DNA of 24,809 nt from an uncultured Elusimicrobia bacterium (lineage in GTDB: Bacteria > Elusimicrobiota > Elusimicrobia > UBA1565). Shown here piece after piece: positions 1 to 24,703 of this stretch. The stretch lies in NCBI GenBank assembly GCA_964359165.1, contig CAYHRV010000017.1, forward strand, positions 1-24,809, read 5' to 3'. The notes beneath the pieces were generated by a model. That model was given only the letters and a program-made list of their open reading frames with translations, was not told the DNA's origin and searched no databases. The first letter of the stretch is position 1. Each line of letters starts with the position of its first letter. The position numbers were made by a program, and so were the translations under genes.

Positions 1-153
1 AGCTCCGGCCGCGACCACGCACAGCCCCAGGCCCGGAAAGGATTCCACCGCGCCCCGGACCAGCATCTCACCGCCCACGAACCCGAGAGTGCCCGGAAAA
101 CCCGTGAGCGCCAGCCCGAGGATCAGGAAACAGGCCGCGAGGACGGGCATCCT
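1..153 (-). CDS. 5' end of a membrane protein gene that continues beyond the window start; function unknown
   Basis: ATG at 153..151 with GGAGG about 8 nt upstream. Translation is MPVLAACFLILGLALTGFPGTLGFVGGEMLVRGAVESFPGLGL..., hydrophobic throughout. The LxGxPxxxGFxGxE pattern recalls antiporter-like NuoL/M/N or Mrp subunits but is not diagnostic. In-frame stops (TGATGA) lie about 60 codons upstream. Confidence 0.3.
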
Positions 154-322
154 CTCACAGCCTCCATGGAAGCGGTCCAGGCTCAGGCGTCCGCGCCGCG
201 CCTCCAGCACCAGGACGCAGCGCGTCAATGCGGCGAGAGCCAGACCCGAGGACACCCAGAGGACGAGAGCGCCGACCAAGGCCTCCCGGCTGGGGATATC
301 GAGCTCTCCCGCCCGGCGGATT

Positions 323-1900
323 TCAGCTGGCGAGGATCTTCTCGGCCTCTTCCTTGTCGAGGTCCATCATCATCCGGATGCCGCTGATCTTGGAGGCTTC
401 CGGGGTGAGGGCGGCGATGTCATCGCGCTTGAAATGCTCCAGGGAGAACTTGCGCGCGCCGCACATCATCTGGCGCAAGCCCTGGGAGATCCTCTCGAGG
501 TAGGTGTAGACGCCCAGGGCCCCGGGCGGCACCTTCTCGAAGTCCTTACCCAGCTTCTCCTTGAGCTCCGAGGCGCAAACGAAGACCTCCTCGACCGAAT
601 TGCCGAAGCGCCCCACGAACACCGGCATGTCGCCGGAAGCGATGCGCTTGCCGATGGTCTTGGCCACCATGGCCGCGGTCAGCGGCGCGCGCGCCATCTC
701 GATGGCCTTGAAGTACGGGGCTCCCATGGCTAACCCTTTGAACATCTGGTCCTCGAAGGCGAAGCCCCCCGCGATGGCGATGTGCGGGACGAACTCGCCG
801 CGCTTGGCGAGCTTGTCGGCGTACTGATAGAGCAGGGAGAAGAGCTCCACCGGCGGCACGCCCCACTCGTTCATCATGCGCCAGGGGCTCATGCCCGTCC
901 CGCCTCCGGCGGCGTCGACGGTGAGCAGGTCGATCTTCCCCTTGGAGGAGAACTTGATGGCGCGCGCCAGGTCCGCCGGGCGATAGGCCCCGGTCTTGAG
1001 GAAGACGTGCTTGGCCCCGCAGTCGCGCAGTTCCTTGACGCGCTTGAGGAAGCCTTCCTCGCTGACCATCCCGACCCGGGAGTGCCTCTCGAACTCCTTG
1101 AAGGAGCCGCGGTCGAAGGCCTTGATGGTGCTCGGGGAGGCCGGGTCGGGGAGCACGATATAGCCGCGGTCCTTGAGTATCTGGGCCTTCTTGAGGCTCC
1201 CGATCTTCACCTCGCCGCCGATGTTCTTGGCACCCTGCCCCCACTTGAGCTCCACGGTGTCCACGCCCAGCTTGCTCACGGCGTACTCCTGCACGCCCAG
1301 GCGGCCGTCCTCCACGTTGGCCTGCACGACCACGGTCCCGTAGCCGTCCTGCCAGTCCTTGAAGAGCTTGACCCGGCGCGCGAGCTCCGGGGAGGAGACG
1401 ACGCGGCCCTTGACGATCTCGGCGTCCATGTCCATGCCGCAGACGTTCTCGCCGATGGTCAGGATGACGCCGGAGAGAGCCGCGCCCACCGCCAGCCCCT
1501 CCCAGTTCTTGGCCGCGATGTCGGTGGATCCCAGGCCGCCGAAGACCACGGGCAGGCGCACCTTCACCCCGGGGTTGTGCCCCAGGCGGGTCTCCAGCCG
1601 GACGTTGGGGAAGAGGGCCTTGTCGCTGTCGGCCTCGATGCCGTGCGCGCCCACGGCCCCGCCCATGATCTGGAAATGGGAGAGGTCCACGGGGTAGGAT
1701 TTCTCGGAGGCCGTGGTGATGATGCCGAAGGGTTGCGGGTAGATGACCTCGCTGCCGCGCAGGGCGGATTTGCCCACCTCGCACATGCCCACGCACCCGT
1801 CCACGCAGGTCACGCAGAGCCCGCTGTTGGGGGTGACGGACCCCACGGTCCGGTTCTTGGTCAAAGTCGCCGCCGTCGCGTTGTATTTGCTGTAGGCCAT
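323..1900 (-). CDS. FMN/Fe-S flavoprotein of the glutamate synthase large-subunit domain-2 (GltB FMN-binding) family
   Basis: 525 aa ORF. N-terminal Cys cluster CVTCVDGCVGMC. The central and C-terminal region (GGTGMSP, AIAGGF, Gly-rich stretches) matches the TIM-barrel FMN domain of glutamate synthase-related proteins. It is last in the co-directional array after the NuoEF-like genes. Confidence 0.75.
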   Translation of the reverse strand: MAYSKYNATAATLTKNRTVGSVTPNSGLCVTCVDGCVGMCEVGKSALRGSEVIYPQPFGIITTASEKSYPVDLSHFQIMGGAVGAHGIEADSDKALFPNVRLETRLGHNPGVKVRLPVVFGGLGSTDIAAKNWEGLAVGAALSGVILTIGENVCGMDMDAEIVKGRVVSSPELARRVKLFKDWQDGYGTVVVQANVEDGRLGVQEYAVSKLGVDTVELKWGQGAKNIGGEVKIGSLKKAQILKDRGYIVLPDPASPSTIKAFDRGSFKEFERHSRVGMVSEEGFLKRVKELRDCGAKHVFLKTGAYRPADLARAIKFSSKGKIDLLTVDAAGGGTGMSPWRMMNEWGVPPVELFSLLYQYADKLAKRGEFVPHIAIAGGFAFEDQMFKGLAMGAPYFKAIEMARAPLTAAMVAKTIGKRIASGDMPVFVGRFGNSVEEVFVCASELKEKLGKDFEKVPPGALGVYTYLERISQGLRQMMCGARKFSLEHFKRDDIAALTPEASKISGIRMMMDLDKEEAEKILAS

Positions 1901-1904
1901 GTCA

Positions 1905-1927
1905 GCATTCCCCCCGCGGGGGAATGC
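1905..1927 (-). promoter_or_regulatory. GC-clamped stem-loop (10-bp stem, 3-nt loop) ending 5 nt upstream of the GltB-like start codon
   Basis: Plus strand reads GCATTCCCCC-CGC-GGGGGAATGC, which can pair perfectly. It lies between the stop of the upstream gene (1997) and the ATG at 1900. Confidence 0.5.
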
Positions 1928-1996
1928 TCGTGGAGGGGCGTTGTTGCCGTTTCATAAGCCCCTTCCTTATTATTCCCTTTCCGCGATGTATTTTCT

Positions 1997-2668
1997 TCAT
2001 TTTCGTATGCAGGTTCCGCAACTGCCGGTCGTCCCCATGTAGCACATCAAGTCATCGTGCGGTTCCACGCAGGTCGGCTGGACGCTCATGCAGGAGCCGC
2101 AGATGTCCGTCGGCGGCTTGGGGCCGTGGCAGCGCAGGGTGCAGGCCGGGCAGACATACATGCAGCCTCCGCAGCGCCGGCAGCTCTGCGAGGGCTTGTC
2201 GAAAGGGGTGGTGATGCGCCGCTTGGCGCCGCGGCCCACGAAGTCGATGGCCCCGGCCATCATCTGCTCCTTGCACATGCGCACGCAGAGCCCGCAGAGC
2301 ACGCACTCCTCGTCGCGCGGAGGGAAGCGCTGGCGGCCGACGCCCATGAGCGCGGCCAGGTCCTGCAGGACCTTGGAGTTGGGGGCCGTGGAGAGCATGA
2401 GCTCCACGAGCATGCGCCGCGTCTTGAGCACCCGGCGCGAGCCCGTGCGCACGAAGAGCCCTTCCTCCGCCGGATAAGTGCAGGAGCTCACCAGGCGGCC
2501 CCGCTCCCCCTTGCCGATCTCGACTACGCAGAGGCGGCAGCCCCCGTAGGGCGTGAGGCCGTCCATGTGGCAGAGCGTGGGGATCTCCAGCCCCAGGAAG
2601 CGCGCGGCCTCCAGGACCGTGGTCCCGGGCTCCACCGACACATCCAACCCGTCTATTCGCAGATTCAT
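1997..2668 (-). CDS. 2Fe-2S plus two 4Fe-4S iron-sulfur protein resembling the N-terminal domains of NuoG/HndD/FdsA
   Basis: 223 aa. Plant-type 2Fe-2S pattern C-x10-C-x2-C-x13-C near the N-terminus, followed by CVLCGLCVRMC and CRRCGGCMYVCP 4Fe-4S motifs. No catalytic (molybdopterin or H-cluster) domain follows. Confidence 0.75.
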   Translation of the reverse strand: MNLRIDGLDVSVEPGTTVLEAARFLGLEIPTLCHMDGLTPYGGCRLCVVEIGKGERGRLVSSCTYPAEEGLFVRTGSRRVLKTRRMLVELMLSTAPNSKVLQDLAALMGVGRQRFPPRDEECVLCGLCVRMCKEQMMAGAIDFVGRGAKRRITTPFDKPSQSCRRCGGCMYVCPACTLRCHGPKPPTDICGSCMSVQPTCVEPHDDLMCYMGTTGSCGTCIRK

Positions 2669-2673
2669 ATCTC

Positions 2674-2698
2674 AGCGGCCCCCTCGCAGGGGGCTGCT
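2674..2698 (-). promoter_or_regulatory. Stem-loop (10 bp with one G-U pair, 5-nt loop) ending 6 nt upstream of the start codon at 2668
   Basis: Plus strand AGCGGCCCCC-TCGCA-GGGGGCTGCT, in the intercistronic gap between the NuoF-like stop and the NuoG-like start. Confidence 0.45.
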
Positions 2699-2739
2699 TC
2701 CTTCGGGGTGCGGGATCCGTTTCATCAGACGGTCCGTTT

Positions 2740-4656
2740 TCATATGACAAAAACCGCCTTGCTCTTGCAGACCTCCGCGCAGATGCCGCAGCGAATGCAA
2801 AGGGAATCGTCGACGCGGTGCGGCTTCTTCAACTCGCCGGAGATCGCCTTCTGCGGGCACTCCTTCTTGCAGAGCAGACAGCCGACGCAATGCTCCTCAT
2901 CGATGACGTAGCGGATGAGCGCCTTGCAGACCCCGGCGGTGCAGCGCTTGTCGCGGATGTGCGTCTCGTATTCCTTGCGGAAGTAGCGCAATGTGCTCAG
3001 CACCGGGTTGGCCGCGGTCTGTCCCAAGCCGCAGAGCGAGCTGTCCTTGACCACGGCCCCCAACTCCTCCAAGAGGGCGAGGTCCCCCTCCTTGCCCTTG
3101 CCCTCGCAGATGCGGTCGACGATCTCCCACATGCGCTGGGTGCCCTCGCGGCAGGGAAGGCATTTCCCGCAGGACTCCTCGCGCAGGAAGTTGAGGAAAT
3201 ACCGGGAGATGTCCACCATGCAGGTGGAATGGTCCATCACGATCATGCCGCCGGACCCCATGATGGAGCCGGCCTTGGCCAGGCTCTCGTAGTCCACCGG
3301 CAGGTCGAGGAGCTGCCGGGGCAGACAGCCTCCGCTGGGGCCGCCGGTCTGCACGGCCTTGAATTCCCCTTCGCCCCGGATGCCGCCGCCCACGCCGAAG
3401 ATGATGTCGCGCAGCGTGGTCCCTACGGGGACCTCGACGAGCCCGGTATTGACGACTTTCCCGACCAGCGAGAATATCTTGGTTCCGCCGCTCTCGGGCG
3501 TCCCGATCCGGCAAAACCAATGGCCGCCGCGCCGGATGATGAGGGGGATGTTGGCCCAGGTCTCCACGTTGTTGATGTTGGTGGGCTTGCCCCATAGTCC
3601 CCGCACCGCGGGGAAAGGCGGGCGCTGGCGCGGTTCGCCCCTGCGGCCTTCCAGCGAGGCGATGAGAGCCGTCTCCTCGCCGCACACGAAGGCGCCGGCT
3701 CCGCGCTCGATGTGGATGTCGAAATCGAACTTGGAGCCGAGGATGCCCTTGCCCAGCAGGCCGCGCTCGCGGGCCTGTTCCACAGCCAGGCGCACGTGCT
3801 TGACGGCGAGGGGATACTCGTAGCGCACATAGACGAAGCCCTCGGAGGCCCCGATGGCGTACGCGCCGATGATCATGCCCTCCAGAACAGAATGGGGGTT
3901 TCCCTCCAGCACGCTTCGGTCCATGTACGCGCCGGGGTCGCCCTCGTCCGCGTTGCAGACCACGTATTTGACCTCGCTCTTGGCCCTGCGGCAGAACTCC
4001 CATTTAAAGCCCGTCGGAAATCCCGCGCCGCCCCGTCCCCGGAGCTTGGCTTTCTTGACCTCACCGATGACGGCGTCCGGGGTCAGCTCATGCAGGGCCT
4101 TGGCCAAGGCCTGGTACCCACCCAGGGCGAGGTAACCCTCGATGTCGGAGGGGTCGACGAGGTCGTTGGCGCGCGTGATCTGCCTGCGCTGGAGCTTATA
4201 GAAAGGGATGTCGCTGGCGAAACGGACCGTCTGCCCGGTGTTGGGGTCCTTATAGAGGAGTTCCTCGATGACGTTGTTGCGCAGGATGGTCTCCGAGAGT
4301 ATCTCCTTGGCGTTCTCGGGCTTGACTCTCTGATACAGGATGCCGAGAGGGTCGACCTGGACGATGGGCTCTATGTCGCAGAAACCCTGGCAGCCCGTGG
4401 ACTGGATTAGGACGCGGCCCTCGAGTCCGAGGGCGGCGGCCTGCTCCTTGAGCGCGGAGGCGAGCTCCATGGCCCCTTTGGCCAAGCCGCAGGTGCCGCA
4501 CGAGACGGTCAGGGTGAAAGCGTAAGCTTCGCGCTCGCGCAGGATGCGCTCGCGCTCGCGGGAAAGCGCCTGCGGCCCGGAGAGCCTCTTCTCGGGTTTC
4601 TCCCCTCCGGGTCGGCGGCCGGCGCGGGCCTCAGTGCGCTTTAAAGAAAGTGCCAT
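2740..4656 (-). CDS. NuoF/HndC/HydB-type NAD(P)H-binding flavoprotein (51 kDa family) with an N-terminal thioredoxin-like 2Fe-2S domain and a C-terminal 2x[4Fe-4S] ferredoxin domain
   Basis: GGAGFPTGFKWEF NADH/FMN motifs, SCGKCLPCREG 4Fe-4S motif, and C-terminal CVGCLLCKKECP / CIRCGICAEVC. The track ORF extends to 4899, but the arginine-rich N-terminal extension is implausible. The in-frame ATG at 4656..4654 gives a NuoE-like N-domain (STGCQGFCDIEP) with the expected spacing, and overlaps the upstream gene by 26 nt. Confidence 0.85.
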   Translation of the reverse strand: MALSLKRTEARAGRRPGGEKPEKRLSGPQALSRERERILREREAYAFTLTVSCGTCGLAKGAMELASALKEQAAALGLEGRVLIQSTGCQGFCDIEPIVQVDPLGILYQRVKPENAKEILSETILRNNVIEELLYKDPNTGQTVRFASDIPFYKLQRRQITRANDLVDPSDIEGYLALGGYQALAKALHELTPDAVIGEVKKAKLRGRGGAGFPTGFKWEFCRRAKSEVKYVVCNADEGDPGAYMDRSVLEGNPHSVLEGMIIGAYAIGASEGFVYVRYEYPLAVKHVRLAVEQARERGLLGKGILGSKFDFDIHIERGAGAFVCGEETALIASLEGRRGEPRQRPPFPAVRGLWGKPTNINNVETWANIPLIIRRGGHWFCRIGTPESGGTKIFSLVGKVVNTGLVEVPVGTTLRDIIFGVGGGIRGEGEFKAVQTGGPSGGCLPRQLLDLPVDYESLAKAGSIMGSGGMIVMDHSTCMVDISRYFLNFLREESCGKCLPCREGTQRMWEIVDRICEGKGKEGDLALLEELGAVVKDSSLCGLGQTAANPVLSTLRYFRKEYETHIRDKRCTAGVCKALIRYVIDEEHCVGCLLCKKECPQKAISGELKKPHRVDDSLCIRCGICAEVCKSKAVFVI

Positions 4657-5038
4657 ACTTTTCGTAGAAGGTCTTGAGCTCCAGGTCCGGGTCCTCGAAT
4701 TCGATGAGGTGCTTCTTGCACCCCCGGCGTGAGCAGATCTGTATCGTCCCCCCCTCCGCCAAGGAGAACGCCACCATGGGCGCCTGGCAGATCTCGCAGT
4801 TCCTGGAGCTTTTGAGCCCTTCCTTGCAGTGGGGACAGAACAGGTCGCCGATCTTCCCGTCGGGGCAGACGATGTCCATCTCGACCTTGTAGCTCCCATA
4901 GAGCGAGCTCATGTGGAGCTTCCCCTTCTTCTTGCCGTAGCGGATCTCCACGGTGATGGCGGGGTGGTTGTCGATCTTGCGTTTGGAGTCCATCAAGGAC
5001 TCCGCGCACAGCGGGCACTTGAGTTCGACTTCGATCAT
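4631..5038 (-). CDS. Small Cys-rich (zinc-ribbon/rubredoxin-like) protein of unknown function
   Basis: 135 aa, 9 Cys arranged as CPLC..CPDG..CPHC..CEIC..CSRRGC. Lys-rich and noticeably lower GC than its neighbours. Its ATG overlaps the NuoE-like stop (ATGA), and its 3' end overlaps the NuoF-like start. Confidence 0.55.
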   Translation of the reverse strand: MIEVELKCPLCAESLMDSKRKIDNHPAITVEIRYGKKKGKLHMSSLYGSYKVEMDIVCPDGKIGDLFCPHCKEGLKSSRNCEICQAPMVAFSLAEGGTIQICSRRGCKKHLIEFEDPDLELKTFYEKYGTFFKAH

Positions 5039-5529
5039 TTCTTCGGCGCCTCCGATCTCTTGGCGAGCTTGCGCGCTCCCTGCGGGGTGACCTGGCCGTG
5101 ATATTTCCCGTCGGTGACGAGGACGGGGCCGATGGCGCAGCAGCCCAGGCAGTTGACGGTCTCCAGGGAGTATTCCCCGTCCCCCGTGGTCTCGCCGGGC
5201 CGGACGCCGAGCATTCGGCTGAGCTCGTCGACGACGCGGGTCACGCCGCGCACGTGGCAGGCCGTGCCGATGCAGGCGGTCAGAGTGTGGCGGCCCGGCT
5301 TGGTCAGACGGAACATCTTGTAGAAAGTGGCCACGCCATAGATCTCGGTGATCGGCGCGTCGAGGAACTGGGCCACCTGCCGCAGAGCCTCCTCCGGAAG
5401 ATAACCGAGCTCCTCCTGGATGTCCTGCAGGATGGAGATGAGCTCCCGCGAAAGGCCTTTATAGCGCCCCAGGATCGAATCGAGCTGTTTATCTCCCGAT
5501 TTAAACGGCTTTTTCAAGACAGTTTTCAT
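5035..5529 (-). CDS. NuoE/HoxE/HndA-type thioredoxin-like 2Fe-2S subunit (24 kDa family)
   Basis: 164 aa. CIGTACHVRG....CLGCCAIGP four-Cys pattern and overall NuoE-like sequence. Confidence 0.85.
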   Translation of the reverse strand: MKTVLKKPFKSGDKQLDSILGRYKGLSRELISILQDIQEELGYLPEEALRQVAQFLDAPITEIYGVATFYKMFRLTKPGRHTLTACIGTACHVRGVTRVVDELSRMLGVRPGETTGDGEYSLETVNCLGCCAIGPVLVTDGKYHGQVTPQGARKLAKRSEAPKK

Positions 5530-5587
5530 CGAACCATTAAGAAAGCAACAAAACCGCCAAACCCTCTCAGCAACGAGGTCTCTCCAT

Positions 5588-6943
5588 TCAGGCGATTATT
5601 TCTATTGGATGGCCCTTTCTTGAGACCTTTCCGGCGGACCTGGCCGCGAGGAGCGGATCATCAGACTCCATCCCCTCGCGCAGTTCCCAAACGGTAAGCA
5701 TCGGAAGGATGCGAGTGAAGAGCAGAAAGACCAAGAGGAATCCAGCGGCCCACCCCAGGGTGACGGACCATTCCACCCAGGAGGGGCTGTAATGGCCGGG
5801 CCCCCAGGGAAGGAAGGGCCTCGCGCCCGAAGGCACGATGATGGTGTATCTCTCCAACCACATCCCGAGATTCACGGAAAGACCGGCCCATAACAATCGG
5901 CTCTCCAGGGTGCCGATCCGGAAGGCCAGCAAAGGGAATGGGATGGCGAGGCAGAAGATGAGCATGCCCCAGAACCCCGGACCGAATTCTCCGCTCAGCT
6001 TGGCCTGGAACACTTCCATCTCCGCGGCATGCTGTCCATAGAAAGTGGTCAGGAGCTCCACGAAAGTGAAATATCCCCAGAAACAGCAGACCGCCAGGAA
6101 GAATTTTCGCAGGGCCTCGAATTCCGCCTCTCGGATGGCCCATTGGAAGCCGAACGATTTCCGCAGAAGCACCGCGATGGCGGCGAGTCCTCCGAGTCCC
6201 TGGAACGCGGCCCCGATGACGAAATAGGGGCCGATGGCGGCGGAATGCCAGCCGGGCTTGGTCGTCATGCCGAAGATGAATCCGACGTTGGTATGCACCG
6301 AGATGACGAGCGCGAGCAGAACGATGGAAAGGATGCTCATGAGCCGGTGATGGAGCCTCTCCTGGGCTTGGGTTCCCGTCCAGTCCAGGGCCGCCCAGCG
6401 GTAGAATCCACGCTGCCAGGCCGGGACGCCCTGGAGTCGGTCCCGGCAGAGAGCGAAGTCCGGGACGAGCGCGAGGTAGAAGTACAAACAGGACATGAGC
6501 AGATAGGTGGAGATGCACAGCACGTCCCATAGGATCGGCGAGGTCAGATGCGGATAGAGGATGACGTTCAGAAAACGGTCCGGCCGGCCCAGGTCGATGA
6601 TGACGCTGCTAGCCGCGAAGAATAGGCTGGCGATGGTGATGGTCTCCGCTATGCGGGTGAAAGGCCGCCTCCAGGCCGCGTCGGTGATGCGCAGGATGGC
6701 GGAGATGAGCGTGCCCGCGTGCGAGACCCCGATAAAGAAGACGAAGTTGACGATGTAGACTCCCCAGAACACGGGGACGCCGAGCCCGGTGACTTTCAGG
6801 CCGTTGAACACCTGCCAGAGCCAGGCGAGCGCCCCCCAGAGGAACAGGCCGCCCAAGACGGCGGCCGCGATAAGGAAACCCCCTCCCGGCTTGCTCGTCA
6901 GCGGCCGGAGCACCTCCGTCTCCATCTCGTGGATATCCATCAA
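5588..6943 (-). CDS. NrfD/PsrC-family polytopic membrane subunit (quinone-interacting anchor of CISM-type complexes)
   Basis: 451 aa, many hydrophobic helices, family-typical length and composition. The ATGA overlap with the preceding Fe-S subunit stop mirrors psrABC, qrcABCD and act operon layouts. Confidence 0.8.
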   Translation of the reverse strand: MMDIHEMETEVLRPLTSKPGGGFLIAAAVLGGLFLWGALAWLWQVFNGLKVTGLGVPVFWGVYIVNFVFFIGVSHAGTLISAILRITDAAWRRPFTRIAETITIASLFFAASSVIIDLGRPDRFLNVILYPHLTSPILWDVLCISTYLLMSCLYFYLALVPDFALCRDRLQGVPAWQRGFYRWAALDWTGTQAQERLHHRLMSILSIVLLALVISVHTNVGFIFGMTTKPGWHSAAIGPYFVIGAAFQGLGGLAAIAVLLRKSFGFQWAIREAEFEALRKFFLAVCCFWGYFTFVELLTTFYGQHAAEMEVFQAKLSGEFGPGFWGMLIFCLAIPFPLLAFRIGTLESRLLWAGLSVNLGMWLERYTIIVPSGARPFLPWGPGHYSPSWVEWSVTLGWAAGFLLVFLLFTRILPMLTVWELREGMESDDPLLAARSAGKVSRKGHPIEIIA

Positions 6944-7734
6944 CCCTCCCGCAGATAGATCACCTTCGGCTTGGTGCCGAGGTCTTCGAGCATTCGATAC
7001 GCCCGGTGGTCGAGCGAGGCGCGGGACACCTCGCTGCGCGGGTCATGGAGGTCCCCGAAGAGTATCGCCTGGGCCGGACAGGCCTCGACGCAGGCCGGCA
7101 CATAGTCCCCCGGCCGAAGGTCCCGGCCTTCGGAGCGGGTCTTGTCCCGAGCCCTCTGAAGCCGATGGTGGCAGAAGAGGCATTTCTCCACCACCCCTTT
7201 TTCCCGGAGCGAGACGTCCGGATTGGGCGCGAAACCGCCTTCTCCCGGCCATTGGGGGTCTCCCCAATTGAAGAACTTGCAGGTGTAGGGGCAGGCGTTG
7301 ACGCAATAACGGCAGCCGATACATCGGTCGTAGACCTGGCCTACGATGCCCTCCGGGCTGAGAAAGGTCGCCGAGGTGGGACACACCCGTGTGCAGGGCG
7401 GATTGTCGCACTGCTGGCAGGGCATGGGGATGAGACTGCGCCGCACCCGGTCGCCCTCCACCTCGGTGGTAGGGAGTATCTTCAGCCAGCGTATGACCCT
7501 GCCCAGCGCCGCCTCCCGAGGCCCCCCCGGCATCTGGTTGTTCTCGACCGCGCAGCTCACCATGCAGGCCCCGCACGCGGTGCACTTGTCGAGATCGATG
7601 ACCATGCCCCATCTATGGCCGGCCGCCTGGGCTCCATGTCCCGCGGGCGCTGAGTCGGCCGCGGAGAACAGGGAGGAGAAGGCCCGCAGCACCGTTCCCA
7701 AGAAGTTCCTGCGGCCAGCGGGTTCAGGCCGCAT
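6940..7734 (-). CDS. Tat-exported 4x[4Fe-4S] ferredoxin-type subunit (PsrB/NrfC/QrcC/ActB2-like)
   Basis: Twin-arginine motif GRRNFLGTVL. Multiple Fe-S motifs: CTACGACMVSC, CQQCDNPPCTRVCP, CIGCRYCVNACP, CLFCHHR...C. Confidence 0.85.
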   Translation of the reverse strand: MRPEPAGRRNFLGTVLRAFSSLFSAADSAPAGHGAQAAGHRWGMVIDLDKCTACGACMVSCAVENNQMPGGPREAALGRVIRWLKILPTTEVEGDRVRRSLIPMPCQQCDNPPCTRVCPTSATFLSPEGIVGQVYDRCIGCRYCVNACPYTCKFFNWGDPQWPGEGGFAPNPDVSLREKGVVEKCLFCHHRLQRARDKTRSEGRDLRPGDYVPACVEACPAQAILFGDLHDPRSEVSRASLDHRAYRMLEDLGTKPKVIYLREG

Positions 7735-9850
7735 ACACCCTTACCTTGGCCCGCCAAAGAGGCCGACCCGAAGGCTCGAAATTCCGTTTCACGAGCGCGG
7801 CGGGGTTGACGCCCACTCCCAGCGCGTAGCGCCCCATTGCCGTATGCCCCAGGCCCAGAGGCATGGCCACGGTGCTGGGATCGATGCCCGGGAAATACCG
7901 CGCCTTGGCCCGGACTCTTCCCGCGGGGGATTCCACCCAGACCTCCTTTCGGTCCTCGATGCCCAGTCTCTTGGCGGTGTCCGGATGTATCTCCAGCCAG
8001 CTTCCCCATTCCTCCCCCACGTGGATACCCGCCACGCTGTGCAGGTAGGGCAGGTGAGCCCCTTCTCCGAAGGAGAAGGCCAAGGGAACGAAGACTTGGA
8101 GGTCGAGCATATCATCGGAGGGCTCCGCGCGGACCGCGCGGTTGTTGAGCGCTTCGGCCGCGAAATGAAGGGCCGGGAAGGCGGCGCTGACGGTCGCGGC
8201 GGGCACGGCGGCGTAGCGCCGCCAGCCCCCTTCCCTCATCGCGGCCTCGGTCCCGGAACGGCCCGCCGCCTCCCCCAACGCCTCCACGAAATCCTTCCAG
8301 GGGAAAGCCTCGGCGATGCGCCGGTCCCCGAGGGAACGCGCCAGGCGCAGGATGAGGTCCCCGTGATCGCAGGTGTCGTGCATGGGAGCGATCACGGGCG
8401 GCGCGAAGCTCACCACCCCGTCGCCGTCGATGGTCCGGGTGAAGCCGTATTGCCACGCCTCCAGCCCGTGGTGTGGAGGGAGCACCAGGTCCGCCAGTTC
8501 CGAGGTCTCATCCAAAAAAGAAGAGAAGCTCACGATGAATGGGAGCGCACGCAGCGCCTGCCTCCACCGTTCCGGCTCCGGACTCAGGAAAACGGGGTTG
8601 ACCCGCTCGAGCCATAGAAGATCCAAACCGGAGCCCGAACCCAGGGATTCCGGCAGGCGGTGCGCGGAGTTTTCAAGGCGGGACTTAGGAGACGGCAAGC
8701 TCCCGCCGGGCAGCGACAGTTGGTGCCTCTCGGCCTCGCTCCACAGAACGCCTTGCCGCACTCCCACCGAGCCCAGCAGGACGTTGAGGCCATGGACGGC
8801 GACTTGGGTGAAAACCTCCCCGCGATTCGTGATCGCCAGGGCGGGGCGGATGTCGGCCATCTCCCGCGCGAGCTCGGCGATCTTGGCCCGCTCCACTCCC
8901 GTCTGCGCGGACACACTGTCGGGACCGTACTCCCGCAGCACCAGCTCGCGGTATTCCCGGAAGCCCCGAGTCCATCGCTTGACGAACGCCTCGTCATAGA
9001 GGCCTTCCGAAATCAGGATATGCGCCACCCCCAGAGCGAGCACGCCCTCGGTCCCGGGCCGGACCCGGACCCACTCATCGGCCTTGGAGGCCGTCACGGA
9101 TAGGCGCGGCTCGATCTGGACCATGCGGGTCCTGCGCTCCGCGCGCCCCCGCCGCAGGCGGCCGTAGGCCCGCTGGGCCTCGATGGGCGAAGGGAAGGCC
9201 TGAAGCCAGTCCCACCCGAAGGAGACGATGTGGTTGGCGTTGGTCAGGTCGTAGAAGAGCCCTTCCTCGGAGCCGTGCATGAGGCGAAAAGCGTCCGAAG
9301 GCCCCTCGCCCAGAGGCCAGTCCCATTCCCAATAATACGGGGTCCCGAGCGCCCGGGCGAAACGTTTCTGAAGTTCATGGCGGATGTCGCGGATAGGCGC
9401 CGCGAGCATGGCGAGGCGCTCGGGTTTATCGGCATCGAGCACTCCCGAGAGCCGCGTTCGCAGGATTCGCTCCGCTTCGTTCCAGGAGACCCTCTCCCAT
9501 CGCCCTTCCCCCCTCTCGCCCTTTCTCAGGATGGGGAAACGCAGGCGATCGGGATGATAGAGGTCCTGCAGGATGGCGCCGCCCTTGGGGCAGAGGGCTC
9601 CCCCGCTGACCGGATGGCCGGCCTTGCCGGAAACCCCCACCGGCTTGCCTTCCACCACTCGGATGTCCAGCATACAGAGGGCCGGACACAACTTGCAGAC
9701 CGCGGGGCGGCGGACATCGCTCTCCAAGAGCGCCGGCGGCCTTTCCCCCGGCGTAAGAACCCCCGCCCGCAGGGCCTGCGGCAGGGCGCTCGCCGCGCCC
9801 AGCAGCCCTCCCCACTTCAGGAAATTCCGTCTGGATATCTCGGGGTTCAT
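7724..9850 (-). CDS. Tat-exported molybdopterin-oxidoreductase-family large subunit (Psr/Phs/Qrc/ActB1-like)
   Basis: Start taken at ATG 9850 (MNPEISRRNFLKWGG, Tat motif), 5 nt after the cytochrome stop. FS0-type motif C-x2-C-x3-C...C-P-K-G is present. Length ~708 aa. No Cys was seen in the region where Cys/SeCys molybdenum ligands usually sit, so cofactor status is uncertain. Confidence 0.8.
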   Translation of the reverse strand: MNPEISRRNFLKWGGLLGAASALPQALRAGVLTPGERPPALLESDVRRPAVCKLCPALCMLDIRVVEGKPVGVSGKAGHPVSGGALCPKGGAILQDLYHPDRLRFPILRKGERGEGRWERVSWNEAERILRTRLSGVLDADKPERLAMLAAPIRDIRHELQKRFARALGTPYYWEWDWPLGEGPSDAFRLMHGSEEGLFYDLTNANHIVSFGWDWLQAFPSPIEAQRAYGRLRRGRAERRTRMVQIEPRLSVTASKADEWVRVRPGTEGVLALGVAHILISEGLYDEAFVKRWTRGFREYRELVLREYGPDSVSAQTGVERAKIAELAREMADIRPALAITNRGEVFTQVAVHGLNVLLGSVGVRQGVLWSEAERHQLSLPGGSLPSPKSRLENSAHRLPESLGSGSGLDLLWLERVNPVFLSPEPERWRQALRALPFIVSFSSFLDETSELADLVLPPHHGLEAWQYGFTRTIDGDGVVSFAPPVIAPMHDTCDHGDLILRLARSLGDRRIAEAFPWKDFVEALGEAAGRSGTEAAMREGGWRRYAAVPAATVSAAFPALHFAAEALNNRAVRAEPSDDMLDLQVFVPLAFSFGEGAHLPYLHSVAGIHVGEEWGSWLEIHPDTAKRLGIEDRKEVWVESPAGRVRAKARYFPGIDPSTVAMPLGLGHTAMGRYALGVGVNPAALVKRNFEPSGRPLWRAKVRVYAA

Positions 9851-9855
9851 GTCGG

Positions 9856-10362
9856 CTATCGGTGGCAGGCCAGGCAATCGGTGGTGACCCCCTCCTTCTT
9901 ATGGCAGTCCACGCAGGCGGACATGCTCAAGGGCGCCAGCCGGCGCGTCAGCGCGCGCTCCGTCGAAGCCACGTCCCCATGGCAGGCCTTGCAGTCGAGC
10001 TTTCCGTCCCCCGCGTGCCGCTTATGCGAGAAGAGGACATGGCTCGGCGTCCGATAGATCCGCCGCCAGGGGATCTCCTTGCGCTCGCGCAGGAACTCCG
10101 CCAAGTCCTCCGGGGTCCTCGGCGCGGCCTTGCCCGGGTCATGGCAGAGGGCGCAGATGCGCATCTCCGGGATGCCGGCGCGCGCGTCCTCCTTGGCTCC
10201 CGCATGGCACCCGGCGCATTCGATTCCGAAGTCCGCGTGCTTCTTATGGTTGAAGGAAATGGGCTGGGGAGTGCCCCAGGAGCTCCAAGCCCAGAAAAGA
10301 GTCCCGGCCGCGACCAGGGCGACGAAGAGCAGGGACCCCGCGGCCGACAATATCTCCCTCAT
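9856..10362 (-). CDS. Membrane-anchored multiheme cytochrome c (five CxxCH motifs)
   Basis: 168 aa. N-terminal TM helix LLFVALVAAGTLFWAW, then CAGCH, CALCH, CKACH, CVDCH, CLACH. Its position directly upstream of the large subunit resembles QrcA/ActA. Confidence 0.85.
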   Translation of the reverse strand: MREILSAAGSLLFVALVAAGTLFWAWSSWGTPQPISFNHKKHADFGIECAGCHAGAKEDARAGIPEMRICALCHDPGKAAPRTPEDLAEFLRERKEIPWRRIYRTPSHVLFSHKRHAGDGKLDCKACHGDVASTERALTRRLAPLSMSACVDCHKKEGVTTDCLACHR

Positions 10363-11282: not shown

Positions 11283-11813
11283 CTAATCCGTCGTTCCCTC
11301 GTCCGCAGCGCCCTCCCCGCTCTTTCCGGGCGGCCCCTTGATGCTGAAGAGATATTTCGCCAAGTCCTCCGTCTCCTCGGCGGTCAGTATCTTCCGCCAG
11401 GACGGCATGTCCAGGGGTGGTTCGGGCTCGGCCTCGTCGAGTTTGGCCGGGTGCCCCCCCTTAAGAAGCTTGCCCTTTAGGTCGGCGCGGGTGAAGGCAT
11501 CGGCCAAGTCCTCGAGGTTAGGGACCATCCCCTCGGGGTCGGCGTTCGGGTTCTTGACCCCGCCCCGGCCCTGGGGGCCGTGGCAGACCCCGCAGCGCAA
11601 GGCCCGGTAGATGCGGCGTCCCCGGAGGATGTCCTTATCCCACGCGCTTTCGGACCCGGCCGGTTCCGCCGCGAATGCCTGGGTCGTGGGCGTTATGGCC
11701 CACCGGGGGCTCCATAACCGCGCCCGCCAGCCCAGGAAGCCGTAGAACCCGAAGATGCCGGCCCAGGCGCCCGCGACCAAAACGATCAGCCCGAGCGCTC
11801 CCGCGTCTTTCAT
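11283..11813 (-). CDS. Membrane-anchored monoheme class-I c-type cytochrome
   Basis: 176 aa. N-terminal hydrophobic anchor, single CGVCHG heme motif, downstream Met (DMPSW) as a candidate axial ligand. Confidence 0.75.
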   Translation of the reverse strand: MKDAGALGLIVLVAGAWAGIFGFYGFLGWRARLWSPRWAITPTTQAFAAEPAGSESAWDKDILRGRRIYRALRCGVCHGPQGRGGVKNPNADPEGMVPNLEDLADAFTRADLKGKLLKGGHPAKLDEAEPEPPLDMPSWRKILTAEETEDLAKYLFSIKGPPGKSGEGAADEGTTD

Positions 11814-11825
11814 CGCCGTCGGGGC

Positions 11826-12263
11826 CTACTTGCCCCCCGCTTCCTTTTCCTTGAGTTTCCTATCGATCAGCTCCTTCTTGCGGACCGAGGAATCGTAGAT
11901 CAGGAAGTCGATGATCTTCGTGGCGCTTTTCGCGTTGAGGCCGGAACGCTTCTTTTTCTGCATCTTCTTGACATAAGGGTCCCACTCCTCGGGCAAGGCA
12001 TAGGGCGAATTGACGGCTCGCGCCAAGGTGTGGCATTTGGAGCACCGCACGGCGAAAGTCTTGTAATTTTCCTGCTGTTCCTGGGGATATTTTGAGACGT
12101 CTATCTCAATGGGCCCCTTGTCCCAGGGGAACTCCTTTTCGCCGGCTTTCGCCGCCTCGTCCTTGGCGGTCTCTTTCTTGGCCTCGTTCTGAGCGATGGC
12201 GGCTGAAACAGCGAGTCCGAACACAAAGCACAGGCTCAAGAAGATTTCCCTATTCCCCCTCAT
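11826..12263 (-). CDS. Secreted monoheme c-type cytochrome (Lys-rich C-terminus)
   Basis: The track ORF extends to 12452, but the internal ATG at 12263 is preceded by a strong AAAGGAGG RBS and starts a signal peptide MRGNREIFLSLCFVFGLAVSAAIA. Single CSKCH motif. Confidence 0.7.
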   Translation of the reverse strand: MRGNREIFLSLCFVFGLAVSAAIAQNEAKKETAKDEAAKAGEKEFPWDKGPIEIDVSKYPQEQQENYKTFAVRCSKCHTLARAVNSPYALPEEWDPYVKKMQKKKRSGLNAKSATKIIDFLIYDSSVRKKELIDRKLKEKEAGGK

Positions 12264-12464
12264 ACAAAGCCTCCTTTGCGGCAAATCGGTGCGGCCGGCC
12301 CCGAACACGGAACGGGCTTCCCCGATGTCTCGGGATCGGGGCGCGCGCTCACGGAGGCCGGCAAGGGCTCTTGGGGGGCCCCGCCTGTTTCCACGCGCGC
12401 CGCGCCGGCCGGACCGCCGCGGGCGGACGCATTCTCGCCCGCGGCGGTCCAAGAGTCCGACGGC

Positions 12465-13742: not shown

Positions 13743-13764
13743 TCCCTCCATGGAACGGCTGACC

Positions 13765-13779
13765 GCACCCCGCGGGTGC
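13765..13779 (-). promoter_or_regulatory. Short GC hairpin (GCACCC-CGC-GGGTGC) in the predicted 5' UTR of the Cyc2-like gene
   Basis: Perfect 6-bp stem with 3-nt loop, between the candidate sigma-54 promoter and the RBS. Shares the CCC-GCG-GGG core with the other hairpins. Confidence 0.4.
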
Positions 13780-13800
13780 GAAAACATCCGGGAATACATG

Positions 13801-13818
13801 CGCAACGCCTTGGCCGGG
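13801..13818 (-). promoter_or_regulatory. Candidate sigma-54 (-24/-12) promoter for the Cyc2-like operon
   Basis: Minus strand reads cccGGCCAaggcgTTGCg. GG and GC have the canonical spacing of TGGCAC-N5-TTGCW. It lies ~60 nt upstream of the ATG at 13742, and a sigma-54 activator gene is adjacent. Confidence 0.45.
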
Positions 13819-24638: not shown

Positions 24639-24703
24639 GATTTTTCTCCTAGAATCTCCAAGATCAAGCAACTGCGGGACTTAGCCCCCTCAGAACGCAC
24701 TCG

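Follow-up and report, generated by a model that had tools for sequence, protein, structure and literature searches.

A widespread Bfu-type gene module with a glutamate synthase-like flavoprotein, a candidate for electron-bifurcating glutamate formation

Five co-oriented genes on the minus strand of DNA from an uncultured Elusimicrobia bacterium very likely encode a Bfu-type complex whose third module is a protein resembling the FMN domain of glutamate synthase (GltB-like protein). The genes lie at positions 323 to 5529 of the 24,809-nucleotide stretch of DNA that was analyzed, referred to here as the window. We observed Bfu domain content and sequence signatures, conserved synteny, glutamate-linked neighbors, and conserved sites of the glutamate synthase (GltS) type. 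The best overall explanation, which sequence comparison favors with moderate confidence, is a Type 2 Bfu enzyme that would couple NADH and ferredoxin to the reductive amination of 2-oxoglutarate. No description of the module was found in the searchable literature.

Profile searches and the list of open reading frames (ORFs) recovered, on the minus strand and at the same coordinates, all of the genes that an earlier note on this DNA had named. The genes and the gap that precedes them are as follows.

5530..5587, minus strand: gap of 58 bp between the Qrc-like NrfD gene and nuoE, with a sigma-54-like -24/-12 element inside
5035..5529, minus strand: BfuC, NuoE-like subunit, thioredoxin-like [2Fe-2S] (cluster C1), 164 aa (Pfam and NCBIfam)
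4631..5038, minus strand: small Cys-rich protein, 135 aa (translated ORF)
2740..4656, minus strand: BfuB, HydB-type NuoF subunit, 638 aa as called (Pfam and structure match)
1997..2668, minus strand: BfuA, truncated NuoG-like subunit, 223 aa (Pfam Fer2_4 and Fer4_7)
323..1900, minus strand: GltB-FMN-domain-like flavoprotein, presumed catalytic subunit, 525 aa (Pfam Glu_synthase)

The earlier note had spoken of a five-gene set; its fifth member is the 135-aa Cys-rich ORF, whose first 4 nt overlap the end of the NuoE gene. The NuoF-like ORF extends from 2740 to 4899 but is too long by ~81 codons at its 5' end, where it runs over the small gene in a different frame. The start at 4656, which gives 638 aa, was taken from the gene call on an identical public contig (L001). 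Current gene annotations are piecemeal ('NADH-quinone oxidoreductase subunit E/F', '2Fe-2S binding protein', 'FMN-binding glutamate synthase family protein'), and pathway reconstructions are therefore likely to overlook or misassign the module.

Pfam profiles divide BfuB into an N-terminal thioredoxin-like 2Fe-2S domain, Complex1_51K (E 4.8e-47), SLBB, NADH_4Fe-4S (E 7.7e-34), and a C-terminal 2x[4Fe-4S] domain with Fer4 dicluster matches. This is in agreement with the extra N-terminal and C-terminal cluster domains described in the earlier note, the 2Fe-2S_thioredx match lying right at the cut-off (24.8 bits). The note's assignment of this architecture to the HydB/HndC type was borne out by the structure match to NiFe-HydB of Acetomicrobium mobile (7t2r_B; 796 bits, full length, query 49-635 against chain 8-594) and by conservation of the B2 ligands and of the Bfu-specific Ala and Met. 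The runner-up structures, each above 700 bits, were T. kivui HydB, A. woodii HydB, WorB, and NfnB, and complex I NuoF reached only ~400 bits. In A. mobile numbering, the B2 site comprises Cys438, Cys476 (or Thr), His525, Cys531, and Cys536, and its His is missing from nonbifurcating homologues (PMC9304861). All five ligands (C438, C476, H525, C531, and C536) align to identical residues in BfuB of the window. Among 71 family members, BfuB C479, H566, C572, and C577 are 100% conserved, and Cys517 is retained in just 10% of the family, matching the Thr-type majority of BfuB. The cluster B1 cysteines (Cys496, 499, 502, and 542) are likewise 100% conserved in the family. Residues A202, M204, and F182 are specific to the NADH/FMN pocket of Bfu enzymes (PMC9304861); equivalents of A202 and M204 are present (GDPGAYMD in the window versus GDPGAFMD in 7t2r_B), and the placement of F182 is ambiguous. 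Eight of eight C-terminal cysteines (B3 and B4) are present, and for the N-terminal [2Fe-2S] cluster (B5) two of the four cysteines fall at positions that vary across the family.

BfuC matches the Pfam 2Fe-2S_thioredx profile (E 2.9e-45) and the NCBIfam HoxE/NuoE models, and across 68 members of the family conservation of its Cys86, 91, 127, and 131 is no lower than 99%. In BfuA, Pfam recognizes Fer2_4 and a 4Fe-4S dicluster domain ([2Fe-2S] and 2x[4Fe-4S]) with no catalytic domain, just as the earlier note had read this protein as the N-terminal part of NuoG only. Its twelve cluster cysteines are 100% conserved across the family. A C-terminal tail, absent from that description, contributes seven more conserved cysteines (C176, 180, 190, and 193 at least 95%; C200, 209, and 217 at 87-97%). 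The best solved relative of BfuA is WorA (9mqx_A; 137.7 bits), and BfuA has no His-ligated cluster, with 'LMLSTAPNSKVLQDL' standing at the position of the HxxxCxxC motif. The short BfuA, its [2Fe-2S] and two [4Fe-4S] clusters, and the separate catalytic gene alongside are the defining features of Type 2 Bfu enzymes, in which BfuA has no A3 or A5 cluster. The small Cys-rich protein has four conserved Cys pairs (8/11, 68/71, 81/84, and 102/107) and no significant Pfam family; it is encoded by a separate gene in related loci or, in many, fused to the NuoE C terminus. It is probably an accessory subunit with two zinc-ribbon or rubredoxin-like sites.

The same gene set was found in anaerobic bacteria and archaea from more than 20 phyla, in a total of at least 597 species genomes. 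Carriers include Elusimicrobia, Aminicenantes, Zixibacteria, Dehalococcoidia, Planctomycetota, ANME-1, Methanoperedens, Theionarchaea, Acetothermia, and Ignavibacteria. The co-occurrence search that the earlier note had recommended showed the gene order to be repeated in almost every one of the 80 best loci from these genomes. Where the flank is long enough, essentially all loci keep the order NuoE-[CysS]-NuoF-NuoGN-GltBL, and the arrangement is therefore not due to chance. Related loci contain NuoGN (77/82), NuoF (76/82), and NuoE (67/82), the GltB-like gene follows the short BfuA gene in 77/82, and the four-gene linkage of the GltB-like gene with NuoE/F/G-like genes holds across more than 20 phyla. 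There is no hydrogenase or formate dehydrogenase catalytic subunit in the window, where the sole molybdopterin protein (7724-9877) is QrcB/PhsA-like and TAT-exported and belongs to the neighboring Qrc-like cluster. The absence of such a partner, as originally noted, extends to the 80 related loci, among which the only formate dehydrogenase-like gene belongs to a divergently transcribed cluster (L003).

Genes for glutamate dehydrogenase (GDH) adjoin the module in 18 loci and are its most frequent metabolic neighbor. NtrC-family sigma-54 regulators are near the module in 21 loci and GlnA genes in 5-6, and one locus has the order 2-oxoacid:ferredoxin oxidoreductase-GlnA-GltBL. GDH beside a glutamate-forming enzyme is an ambiguous neighbor; a catabolic role fits equally.

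Judged from its sequence, the GltB-like protein is an FMN barrel remotely related to the FMN domain of glutamate synthase, with similarity too low for detection by phmmer. Its sole Pfam match is Glu_synthase (PF01645; 50.8 bits versus a cut-off of 20.4), a partial match whose best stretch covers profile positions 185-308 of 369, and the profile matches 17/19 diverse family members. With 67-84% identity across more than 20 phyla, it is the most conserved member of the module. Pairwise alignment pairs its VELKWGQGAK with IQIKVAQGAK of E. coli GltB and its DAAGGGTGMSP with GYDGGTGASP. The GltS site motifs QGAK, Arg+20 (R245, 20 residues past the QGAK Lys), GGTGxSP, and GG...G.D..KA..LGA are all present and are invariant in 30 orthologues. 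We take Lys972 and Arg992 of GltS to be residues of the 2-oxoglutarate site, roles that reportedly go back to the glutamate synthase structures of Binda 2000 and van den Heuvel 2002-3. The active-site check for 2-oxoglutarate binding suggested in the earlier note thus found the QGAK and Arg motifs conserved. The [3Fe-4S] motif CX5CX4CP is not present, with LGCKYLRICHLNNC in E. coli GltB versus the Cys-free MARAPLTAAMVAKT in the GltB-like protein, and the N terminus carries a CxxCxxxCxxxC motif. An AF2 model gives a TIM barrel (pTM 0.80) and is poor (pLDDT <50) around the N-terminal cysteines and in the QGAK and GGGTG loops.

The Ntn glutamine amidotransferase, central, and C-terminal GXGXG domains of glutamate synthase are absent from the GltB-like protein itself. 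Amidotransferase and GXGXG domains were likewise not found in the window, in the 87 loci searched, or in Pfam-annotated gene lists, and tblastn detected no GltD, amidotransferase, GXGXG, or GDH homologues in the whole 24.8-kb window. The picture of a stand-alone GltB-like FMN protein beside a truncated NuoG stands, and the module is conserved in this form. The earlier note had left the substrate as unknown, a position narrowed by the QGAK and Arg motifs and by the GDH, glutamine synthetase (GlnA), and sigma-54 regulator genes that recur near the module. These neighbors point to 2-oxoglutarate/glutamate, which we regard as the probable substrate, with moderate confidence.

We infer from sequence a single complex of the five proteins, its substrate, its direction, and bifurcation itself. 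The complex would be a cytoplasmic iron-sulfur flavoprotein of the Bfu (HydABC-like) electron-bifurcating family, in which BfuC and BfuB form the NAD(H)- and ferredoxin-reactive core and the WorA-like truncated BfuA acts as an Fe-S cluster wire. The GltB-like FMN protein would be the third-substrate module, replacing hydrogenase, formate dehydrogenase, or a tungsten enzyme, and its N-terminal four-Cys cluster may provide the electron link to the Cys-rich tail of BfuA. At its FMN, 2-oxoglutarate and free ammonia would yield 2-iminoglutarate and then L-glutamate, a reaction in which an amidotransferase domain would take no part. The 2-oxoglutarate+NH4+/glutamate couple, at ~-120 mV, is well above NAD+/NADH, which is why NADH at the BfuB flavin is proposed as the bifurcated donor. 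The downhill branch would lead from the BfuB flavin through B1 and BfuA to the GltB-like FMN, and the uphill branch would reach ferredoxin by way of the B2/C1 site and the two C-terminal [4Fe-4S] clusters. The overall reaction, presumably reversible, would be 2 NADH + 2-oxoglutarate + NH4+ + 2 Fd(ox) -> 2 NAD+ + glutamate + 2 Fd(red). NADH-bifurcating glutamate formation according to this equation is a tentative proposal; that the module links glutamate formation to energy conservation is probable. In characterized Bfu enzymes the potential of the third substrate lies between those of NAD and ferredoxin, and a third substrate of high potential is so far only a prediction, made for Nuo-Bfu and Rub-Bfu and there as simple confurcation (PMC9304861).

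The statement in the earlier note that GltD is absent is correct for the window but not for the wider family, in which 43 of about 82 related loci have a GltD-like domain, either fused with NuoF or adjacent. These domains are 34-37% identical to E. coli GltD, and in long-form relatives they are located at the BfuB C terminus, replacing the ferredoxin-type clusters. The short form, as in the window, is also found in Dethiobacter alkaliphilus (L020). Because a GltD-like FAD domain replaces the ferredoxin-binding domain in these sister loci, NADP(H) would be expected to take the place of ferredoxin. The note had held that pairing with a distant gltD and function as an ordinary glutamate synthase would speak against its reading. 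The 43 loci bear out half of this; even so, the GltD-like domains of relatives do not make the enzyme an ordinary glutamate synthase.

The earlier note had also suggested that the upstream cytochrome chain might have its cytoplasmic endpoint in the module. The Qrc-like cluster is on the same strand, with only the 58-bp gap between its NrfD-like gene and the module, and a sigma-54 two-component system stands upstream of the whole block, similar regulators directly preceding the module elsewhere. However, such an endpoint is highly improbable. Qrc-like genes (QrcA-D) adjoin the module in none of the other loci searched, regulators occupy the Qrc-like position in the closest relative (L008/L091; 84% identity), and the response regulator in the window is just 37-41% identical to module-linked regulators of other loci. 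Qrc-type complexes are directed toward the periplasm and the quinone pool of the membrane, and none is known to have a cytoplasmic subunit or electron exit; with no cytoplasmic electron-donating subunit, the endpoint reading is unsupported. The sigma-54-like element in the gap (TGGCGGTTTTGTTGCT at 5544-5559; two mismatches to the consensus) is only suggestive as a promoter element of the module because the window should contain 8.4 equal matches by chance. It is also unlikely that a genuine Bfu core serves a GltB-like barrel acting on another 2-oxo, imino, or hydroxy acid or in a nonredox reaction, for which the PF01645 subunit of N-methylglutamate synthase is a precedent. The hydroxy-acid oxidase family has a catalytic His-Arg pair in an NHGGRQ motif, which the GltS-type GGGTGMSP replaces here, and the invariant QGAK and Arg+20 and the GltD, GDH, and GlnA neighbors all indicate glutamate. 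N-methylglutamate synthase itself (MgsABC) requires MgsA (GATase-like) and MgsB (GXGXG) subunits; it was rejected as a candidate, no homologue of either subunit being found in any locus searched. A GltB-like protein working apart from the Bfu subunits, in the manner of the split archaeal glutamate synthases, is highly improbable in view of the four-gene linkage across phyla, the fusion of GltD, where present, to NuoF itself, and the lack of any linked GATase or GXGXG gene in the loci searched.

If glutamate is the product, NADH and reduced ferredoxin might both feed 2-oxoglutarate amination with no energy conservation, the large driving force permitting high-affinity, ATP-free ammonia assimilation. 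Schut et al. read Nuo-Bfu and Rub-Bfu, with their high-potential acceptors, as plain confurcation of this kind (PMC9304861), and the GlnA and NtrC-type regulators adjoining the module suggest control by nitrogen status. However, low-potential ferredoxin would be wasted in energy-limited anaerobes, and the strict conservation of Bfu-specific gating features is not expected if there is no energetic coupling, making this improbable. The same complex could instead run catabolically, as the thermodynamic reverse of the favored reaction, oxidizing glutamate and reduced ferredoxin together to yield 2 NADH. Ferredoxin would then drive the uphill transfer from glutamate to NAD+, as might serve amino-acid-fermenting anaerobes, in a manner resembling the lactate dehydrogenase/Etf confurcating system. 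Aminicenantes, Zixibacteria, Theionarchaea, Acetothermia, and Ignavibacteria, all among the carriers, are generally seen as peptide or amino acid degraders, and GDH, the most frequent metabolic neighbor, is catabolic in such organisms. Yet GDH already oxidizes glutamate, so that a costlier second route would need a rationale, and GlnA and the 2-oxoacid:ferredoxin oxidoreductase-GlnA-GltBL order point toward synthesis; a catabolic role is decidedly unlikely.

Most cellular nitrogen flows through glutamate formation, the large free energy of which is dissipated by glutamate dehydrogenase and GS-GOGAT. If NADH-bifurcating glutamate formation is true, the main nitrogen assimilation step would be energy conserving in energy-starved anaerobic bacteria and archaea, with the short form found in this window yielding reduced ferredoxin and the long form with a fused GltD-like domain yielding NADPH. 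Such coupling would alter how energy and redox are budgeted in metabolic models of anaerobes from the subsurface and from sediments. The complex would be the first Bfu enzyme with NADH at the BfuB flavin as the bifurcated donor and would define a new class of Bfu third substrate, a high-potential organic couple. It would also offer a clean test for the bifurcation site in the BfuBC core, a question left by the structural papers of 2022-2025. Speculatively, it might represent a fifth glutamate synthase class that is amidotransferase-less, ammonia-using, and electron-bifurcating, conserving as reduced ferredoxin or NADPH the ~35 kJ/mol that NADH-driven reductive amination of 2-oxoglutarate sets free.

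Among known systems, the module shares the NuoE-like BfuC with NiFe-HydABCSL and FeFe-HydABC (PDB 7T2R, 8A6T, 7Q4V, and 7P5H), and its BfuB has cofactor-binding residues identical to those of NiFe-HydB, the B2 site included. Unlike the HydABC hydrogenases, it has no hydrogenase subunit or H-cluster domain, and its BfuA is truncated. The BfuBC core and short BfuA are common to WorABCSL of A. mobile (Type 2 Bfu; PDB 9MQX), whose WorB scores 725 bits against BfuB. WorA, a 247-aa protein with no His-ligated cluster, serves as the wire between the BfuBC core and a separate catalytic module, which docks onto its Cys-rich C-terminal element (PMC12318220). The catalytic module of WorABCSL is a tungstopterin aldehyde oxidoreductase with a polyferredoxin 'nanowire' acting on a low-potential substrate (aldehyde/acid), whereas here it is a single glutamate synthase-family FMN barrel with a presumably high-potential substrate. 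NfnABC/Stn (Nfn-Bfu; PMC9304861, PMC10482914, PDB 9N5U) combine a Bfu core with a GltD/NfnB-like FAD domain, like the long-form relatives. In Nfn-Bfu, however, BfuA carries this domain as a fusion, and the third substrate is bound by the domain itself, whereas in the relatives of the module it is at the BfuB C terminus and a GltB-like subunit is also present; the version in the window has no GltD-like domain.

The FMN (beta/alpha)8 domain with QGAK, Arg+20, and GGTGxSP is shared with GltBD of E. coli and A. brasilense (PDB 1EA0, 2VDC, and 6S6X). GltBD has the [3Fe-4S] motif CX5CX4C in place of the N-terminal four-Cys motif, and the module differs from it in its predicted electron input, a Bfu core. 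Archaeal glutamate synthases are split into separate domain proteins. F420-dependent variants of glutamate synthase have also been cited (PMC9012536). Both are precedents for a separate GltS FMN polypeptide with an exchangeable electron-input module, which is of the FrhB type or a ferredoxin domain in those systems and NuoEF/Bfu here; they retain separate amidotransferase and GXGXG proteins, whereas the module has neither. The lactate dehydrogenase/EtfAB and Bcd/EtfAB systems pair a high-potential organic couple with NADH and ferredoxin. The energetic logic proposed for the module is the same, although the proteins are unrelated and bifurcation in those systems takes place at the Etf FAD.

The window sequence was identical to a contig from a Hainich groundwater metagenome (ENA ERZ1292621), and among the matches listed its nearest named relatives were Elusimicrobia MAGs. 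The window is GC-rich (61 to 70%); the GC fraction was 0.61 to 0.63 at 4001-7000, spanning nuoE, the small gene, and the NrfD region, versus 0.66 to 0.70 on both sides. The gene set that the earlier note had recognized at 323-5529 was borne out, with a small Cys-rich open reading frame (ORF) as its fifth gene. The five genes of this module are tightly packed on one strand:

5035-5529, minus strand, NuoE-like protein (BfuC), 164 aa; 2Fe-2S_thioredx match, E 2.9e-45
4631-5038, minus strand, Cys-rich ORF, 135 aa; its start overlaps the NuoE stop by 4 nt
2740-4656, minus strand, NuoF-like protein of the HydB/BfuB type (BfuB), 638 aa
1997-2668, minus strand, NuoG-N-like protein (NuoGN, or BfuA), 223 aa; Fer2_4 plus 4Fe-4S dicluster
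323-1900, minus strand, GltB-like protein (GltBL), 525 aa; Pfam Glu_synthase, 50.8 bits

The longest NuoF ORF (2740-4899) is 719 aa long; its first ~81 codons overlap the 135-aa gene in another frame, and this 5' excess is an Arg/Ser/Pro-rich stretch. The 638-aa form is the gene call on the identical public contig, and the 719-aa ORF is an over-extension. ORF-based annotation would over-extend NuoF and hide the 135-aa Cys-rich gene. Directly 3' of the GltB-like gene, a 102-aa ORF (1-279, minus strand), with a counterpart at 1729-2037 in the related locus L002, resembled no more than a fragment of an antiporter subunit of the NuoL/M/N type (with a weak match to Proton_antipo_M) and is probably a gene remnant.

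As judged from its residues, the NuoEF part of the module is a genuine core of the Bfu family of HydABC-like electron-bifurcating enzymes. BfuB aligned end to end (796 bits; query 49-635, chain 8-594) with 7t2r_B, the B subunit of the structurally characterized electron-bifurcating NiFe-hydrogenase of Acetomicrobium mobile. The next matches were HydB of T. kivui and A. woodii, WorB, NfnB, and T. maritima HydB (676 to 745 bits), whereas complex I NuoF proteins, which are without both terminal domains, scored ~310 to 400 bits. Schut et al. (PMC9304861) defined the Bfu family by an invariant BfuBC core, marked by the B2-site ligands C438, C476 (Thr in two-thirds of members), H525, C531, and C536, by the pocket residues A202 and M204, which are absent from non-bifurcating homologues, and by the terminal cluster domains B3 to B5. 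In the alignment to 7t2r_B, the B2-site ligands and A202/M204 were all identical in the window BfuB. H566, C479, C572, C577, and the four B1 cysteines were 100% conserved in 71 family members from related loci; the BfuC cysteines were at least 99% conserved in 68 members.

The truncated NuoG-like protein resembles WorA. The best solved match of the 223-aa BfuA was 9mqx_A (137.7 bits), the 247-aa WorA of WorABCSL. WorABCSL is a Type 2 Bfu enzyme, in which a short BfuA without the His-ligated cluster carries electrons from a separately encoded catalytic module, and contact between WorA and that module is made by a Cys-rich C-terminal element (PMC12318220). Like WorA, the window BfuA is without the His/Cys motif. 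Its 12 cysteines for one [2Fe-2S] and two [4Fe-4S] clusters were 100% conserved in 79 sequences; in its C-terminal tail, C176, C180, C190, and C193 were at least 95% conserved and C200, C209, and C217 were 87 to 97% conserved.

The GltB-like FMN protein was well above the Glu_synthase cut-off (50.8 versus 20.4 bits), with its best stretch at profile positions 185 to 308 of 369, but it had no match among NCBIfam models. Its best 120 database matches, which were 69 to 87% identical over the full length, came from Elusimicrobia, Aminicenantes, WOR-3, Aerophobetes, Acetothermia, KSB1, Acidobacteriota, Theionarchaea, and Thermoplasmatales. Only 172 relatives were found at E 1e-30, and 1050 at E 1e-3, among 1.84 billion 50%-identity representatives. 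In sequence space, the family is compact and well apart from canonical GltB. A phmmer search found no relative among solved structures, profile searches reached glutamate synthase (GltS) only at E ~0.09, with designed TIM barrels as top matches, and in an hhalign comparison the family profile matched E. coli GltB weakly and only locally, in the GGTG region. The AF2 model is a (beta/alpha)8 barrel (pTM 0.80, mean pLDDT 75.5) with low confidence at residues 1 to 100 and in two active-site loops. Pfam assigned Glu_synthase to 17 of 19 diverse members, FMN_dh to 4, and IMPDH to 3. The active-site residues, which the earlier note had proposed to check, decide in favor of placing GltBL in the GltS family: the QGAK, Arg+20, and GGTG-type motifs of E. 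coli GltB are kept, and the GltS-type motif residues were invariant in 30 orthologues.

Motifs of the window GltBL and of E. coli GltB
Row 1: window, VELKWGQGAK-NIGGE; E. coli GltB, IQIKVAQGAKPGEGG
Row 2: window, LKDR(245)GY, with the Arg 20 residues past the Lys; E. coli GltB, AKLR-Y
Row 3: window, DLLTVDAAGGGTGMSPW; E. coli GltB, DLITIAGYDGGTGASPL
Row 4: window, IAGGFAFEDQMFKGLAMGA; E. coli GltB, VDGGLKTGVDIIKAAILGA

In GltS structures, the QGAK lysine and the arginine 20 residues on reportedly contact 2-oxoglutarate in front of the FMN. Unlike GltS, GltBL is missing the CX5CX4C [3Fe-4S] motif and has instead an invariant N-terminal C29-x2-C32-x3-C36-x3-C40. Assignments of GltBL as an alpha-hydroxy-acid dehydrogenase (catalytic motif absent) or as N-methylglutamate synthase (partner subunits absent from the loci searched) were rejected.

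Second GltBL copies with 49 to 59% identity adjoin the module in several related loci (L020, 3129-4712; L021, 11183-12781; L042, 4015-5604; L074, 1997-3643). The second copy in Methanoperedens adjoins riboflavin kinase and DHBP synthase, and that in Dethiobacter lies between IclR regulators. The QGAK motif is lost in more distant paralogues, which suggests other substrates for them.

A scan of one genome per species confirmed at least 597 GltBL relatives. The loci compared, in which ORFs were called and matched to the window proteins, were the best 80 of these (>20 bacterial and archaeal phyla), and therefore the frequencies describe the closest relatives. NuoGN was directly upstream of the GltBL gene in 77 of 82 loci; NuoF was present in 76 and NuoE in 67. 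Loci without one of these genes were mostly contig ends. Thus, the co-occurrence that the earlier note proposed to look for recurs among these best 80 of at least 597. Identity to the window proteins was highest for GltBL (67 to 84%), lower and similar for NuoF (51 to 67%) and NuoGN (48 to 71%), and lowest for NuoE (42 to 65%). The one clear exception to the linkage was Candidatus Hakubella, in which a 2-oxoacid:ferredoxin oxidoreductase beta subunit and a type I glutamine synthetase precede the GltBL gene.

The module has two main forms. A short NuoF (~620 aa) with C-terminal 2x[4Fe-4S] was found in 36 loci, including the window. A long NuoF (~1055 aa) was found in 33, including L008, the closest named relative among the matches listed; it has Fer4_20 plus Pyr_redox_2, a GltD/NfnB-type module with 34 to 37% identity to E. 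coli GltD, in place of the C-terminal ferredoxin domain. The absence of GltD reported in the earlier note therefore stands for the 24.8-kb window, in which tblastn found no match to GltD, to the amidotransferase, central, or GXGXG parts of GltB (E. coli), or to a glutamate dehydrogenase, but it does not extend to the relatives, 43 of which have a GltD-like module fused or adjacent. The small Cys-rich protein is encoded separately in some loci and joined to the NuoE C-terminus in others, with four Cys pairs conserved. Recurrent neighbors were glutamate dehydrogenase (18 loci), GlnA (5 to 6 loci), and NtrC-family sigma-54 response regulators with kinases (21 loci); if a genome has one or two such genes, chance adjacency is roughly 1%, an estimate rather than a computed value. 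Neither the loci searched nor the Pfam-annotated contexts contained amidotransferase or GXGXG homologues. The possibility that a hydrogenase or formate dehydrogenase partner is merely missing in the window was rejected, as such a partner was not seen in the relatives compared. In one theionarchaeal locus (L003, 1-2675), the module is immediately preceded by a second NuoE/NuoF/NuoG-molybdopterin (formate-dehydrogenase-like) cluster, which is transcribed divergently; it is the only neighbor of this type in the loci compared.

Upstream of the module in the window is a Qrc-like cluster:

9856-10362, minus strand, multiheme cytochrome c
7724-9877, minus strand, TAT-signal molybdopterin-family subunit; PhsA 247 bits, QrcB 286 bits; Molybdop_Fe4S4 match
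6940-7734, minus strand, Fe-S subunit
5588-6943, minus strand, NrfD-type membrane subunit

All four were under the QrcABCD equivalog cut-offs. The large subunit may be catalytically active, as a Psr/Phs-like reductase, instead of a QrcB without cofactor, because its PhsA score is near that for QrcB and Molybdop_Fe4S4 is kept. The earlier note had suggested that the module is the cytoplasmic endpoint of this cytochrome chain. The cluster ends 58 bp from nuoE, so that read-through transcription into the module is possible. However, Qrc-like genes were in none of the other loci searched, and a quinone-linked complex that faces the periplasm has no way of passing electrons to a soluble NADH/ferredoxin enzyme. 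We consider such an endpoint highly improbable and reject Qrc coupling of the module because the adjacency is not conserved in those loci. Farther upstream on the minus strand are two small c-type cytochromes, one with a Pfam Cytochrom_C match (11283-11813) and one with a CSKCH motif and no family (11826-12452). Adjoining them is the gene at 12465-13805, whose 446-aa product has a signal-like N-terminus, a single CSQCH heme motif, a C-terminus (...VELGF) typical of outer-membrane barrels, and no family match in Pfam or NCBIfam. This set could include a porin-cytochrome-type component.

An NtrC-family sigma-54-dependent response regulator and histidine kinase (13905-16861, minus strand) are upstream of the cytochrome/Qrc/Bfu block. 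Similar regulators are directly upstream of the module in 21 other loci; the window regulator is only 37 to 41% identical to these, and the window kinase only 30 to 37% identical to the module-linked kinases. The cytochrome genes may have been inserted between regulator and module. A sigma-54-type -24/-12 element, TGGCGGTTTTGTTGCT, lies in the 58-bp gap (5544-5559, minus strand), 15 nt upstream of the nuoE ATG. The window site alone is not significant, and sites with at most 2 mismatches upstream of nuoE were only weakly enriched (5 of 63 related loci versus 3.1% of control windows). Use of this element would leave the transcript with almost no leader; nuoE in the window has no evident Shine-Dalgarno sequence.

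The module very probably encodes a Type 2 Bfu enzyme whose third-substrate part is a minimal GltS-type FMN subunit, and we infer that its five proteins would form one assembled complex. The third couple is, on balance, probably 2-oxoglutarate plus NH3/glutamate, as proposed from the conserved site motifs, the GltD fusion in half of the family, and the glutamate dehydrogenase, GlnA, and 2-oxoacid oxidoreductase neighbors. None of the loci searched has a linked glutaminase, so that nitrogen would come from ammonia rather than from glutamine. The potentials are about -120 mV for the third couple, -320 mV for NAD, and about -450 mV for ferredoxin. NADH is proposed as the bifurcated donor because this is the only energy-conserving arrangement at these textbook potentials. 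NADH would be bifurcated at the Bfu core, its electrons going downhill to the amination and uphill to ferredoxin; in the long forms, the uphill electrons would instead reduce NADP+ through the GltD-like FAD. We offer NADH-bifurcating glutamate formation by the module tentatively, as a possible rather than a probable activity.

Plain confurcation, with NADH and reduced ferredoxin both feeding glutamate formation, would match the published reading of Nuo-Bfu and Rub-Bfu (PMC9304861) and is unlikely here. We give the same low likelihood to a Bfu core with GltBL acting on a different substrate, a possibility that arises because the relation of GltBL to GltS is so remote. The bifurcating reaction would be near equilibrium and therefore reversible, so that the catabolic direction, glutamate + Fd(red) -> 2 NADH, would be the same enzyme running backwards; this direction seems slightly less likely still. 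About 14 kb from the module is a glutamate-consuming pathway, an arginine biosynthesis cluster (20214-24671, minus strand) with argH (above cut-off), an ArgE/DapE-type deacylase, argB, and N-acetylornithine carbamoyltransferase (387 bits versus a cut-off of 288). Its link with the module may be coincidental.

A glutamate-synthase-like partner is not mentioned in PMC9304861, in its supplement, or in structural papers from 2023 to 2025, and no description of a Bfu/NuoEF module with a GltB-like subunit was found in the open-access literature, within which the Bfu-GltB module appears to be undescribed. The Bfu types listed by Schut et al. are FeFe, NiFe, Nfn, Fdh, F420, Wor, Bam, Codh, Por, Mbh, Nuo, and Rub, and 18 of the 57 Bfu clades are uncharacterized (PMC9304861). 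The module has its Bfu core in common with these known systems. Its catalytic partner is new, as are the likely class of substrate and the direction of bifurcation that is implied.
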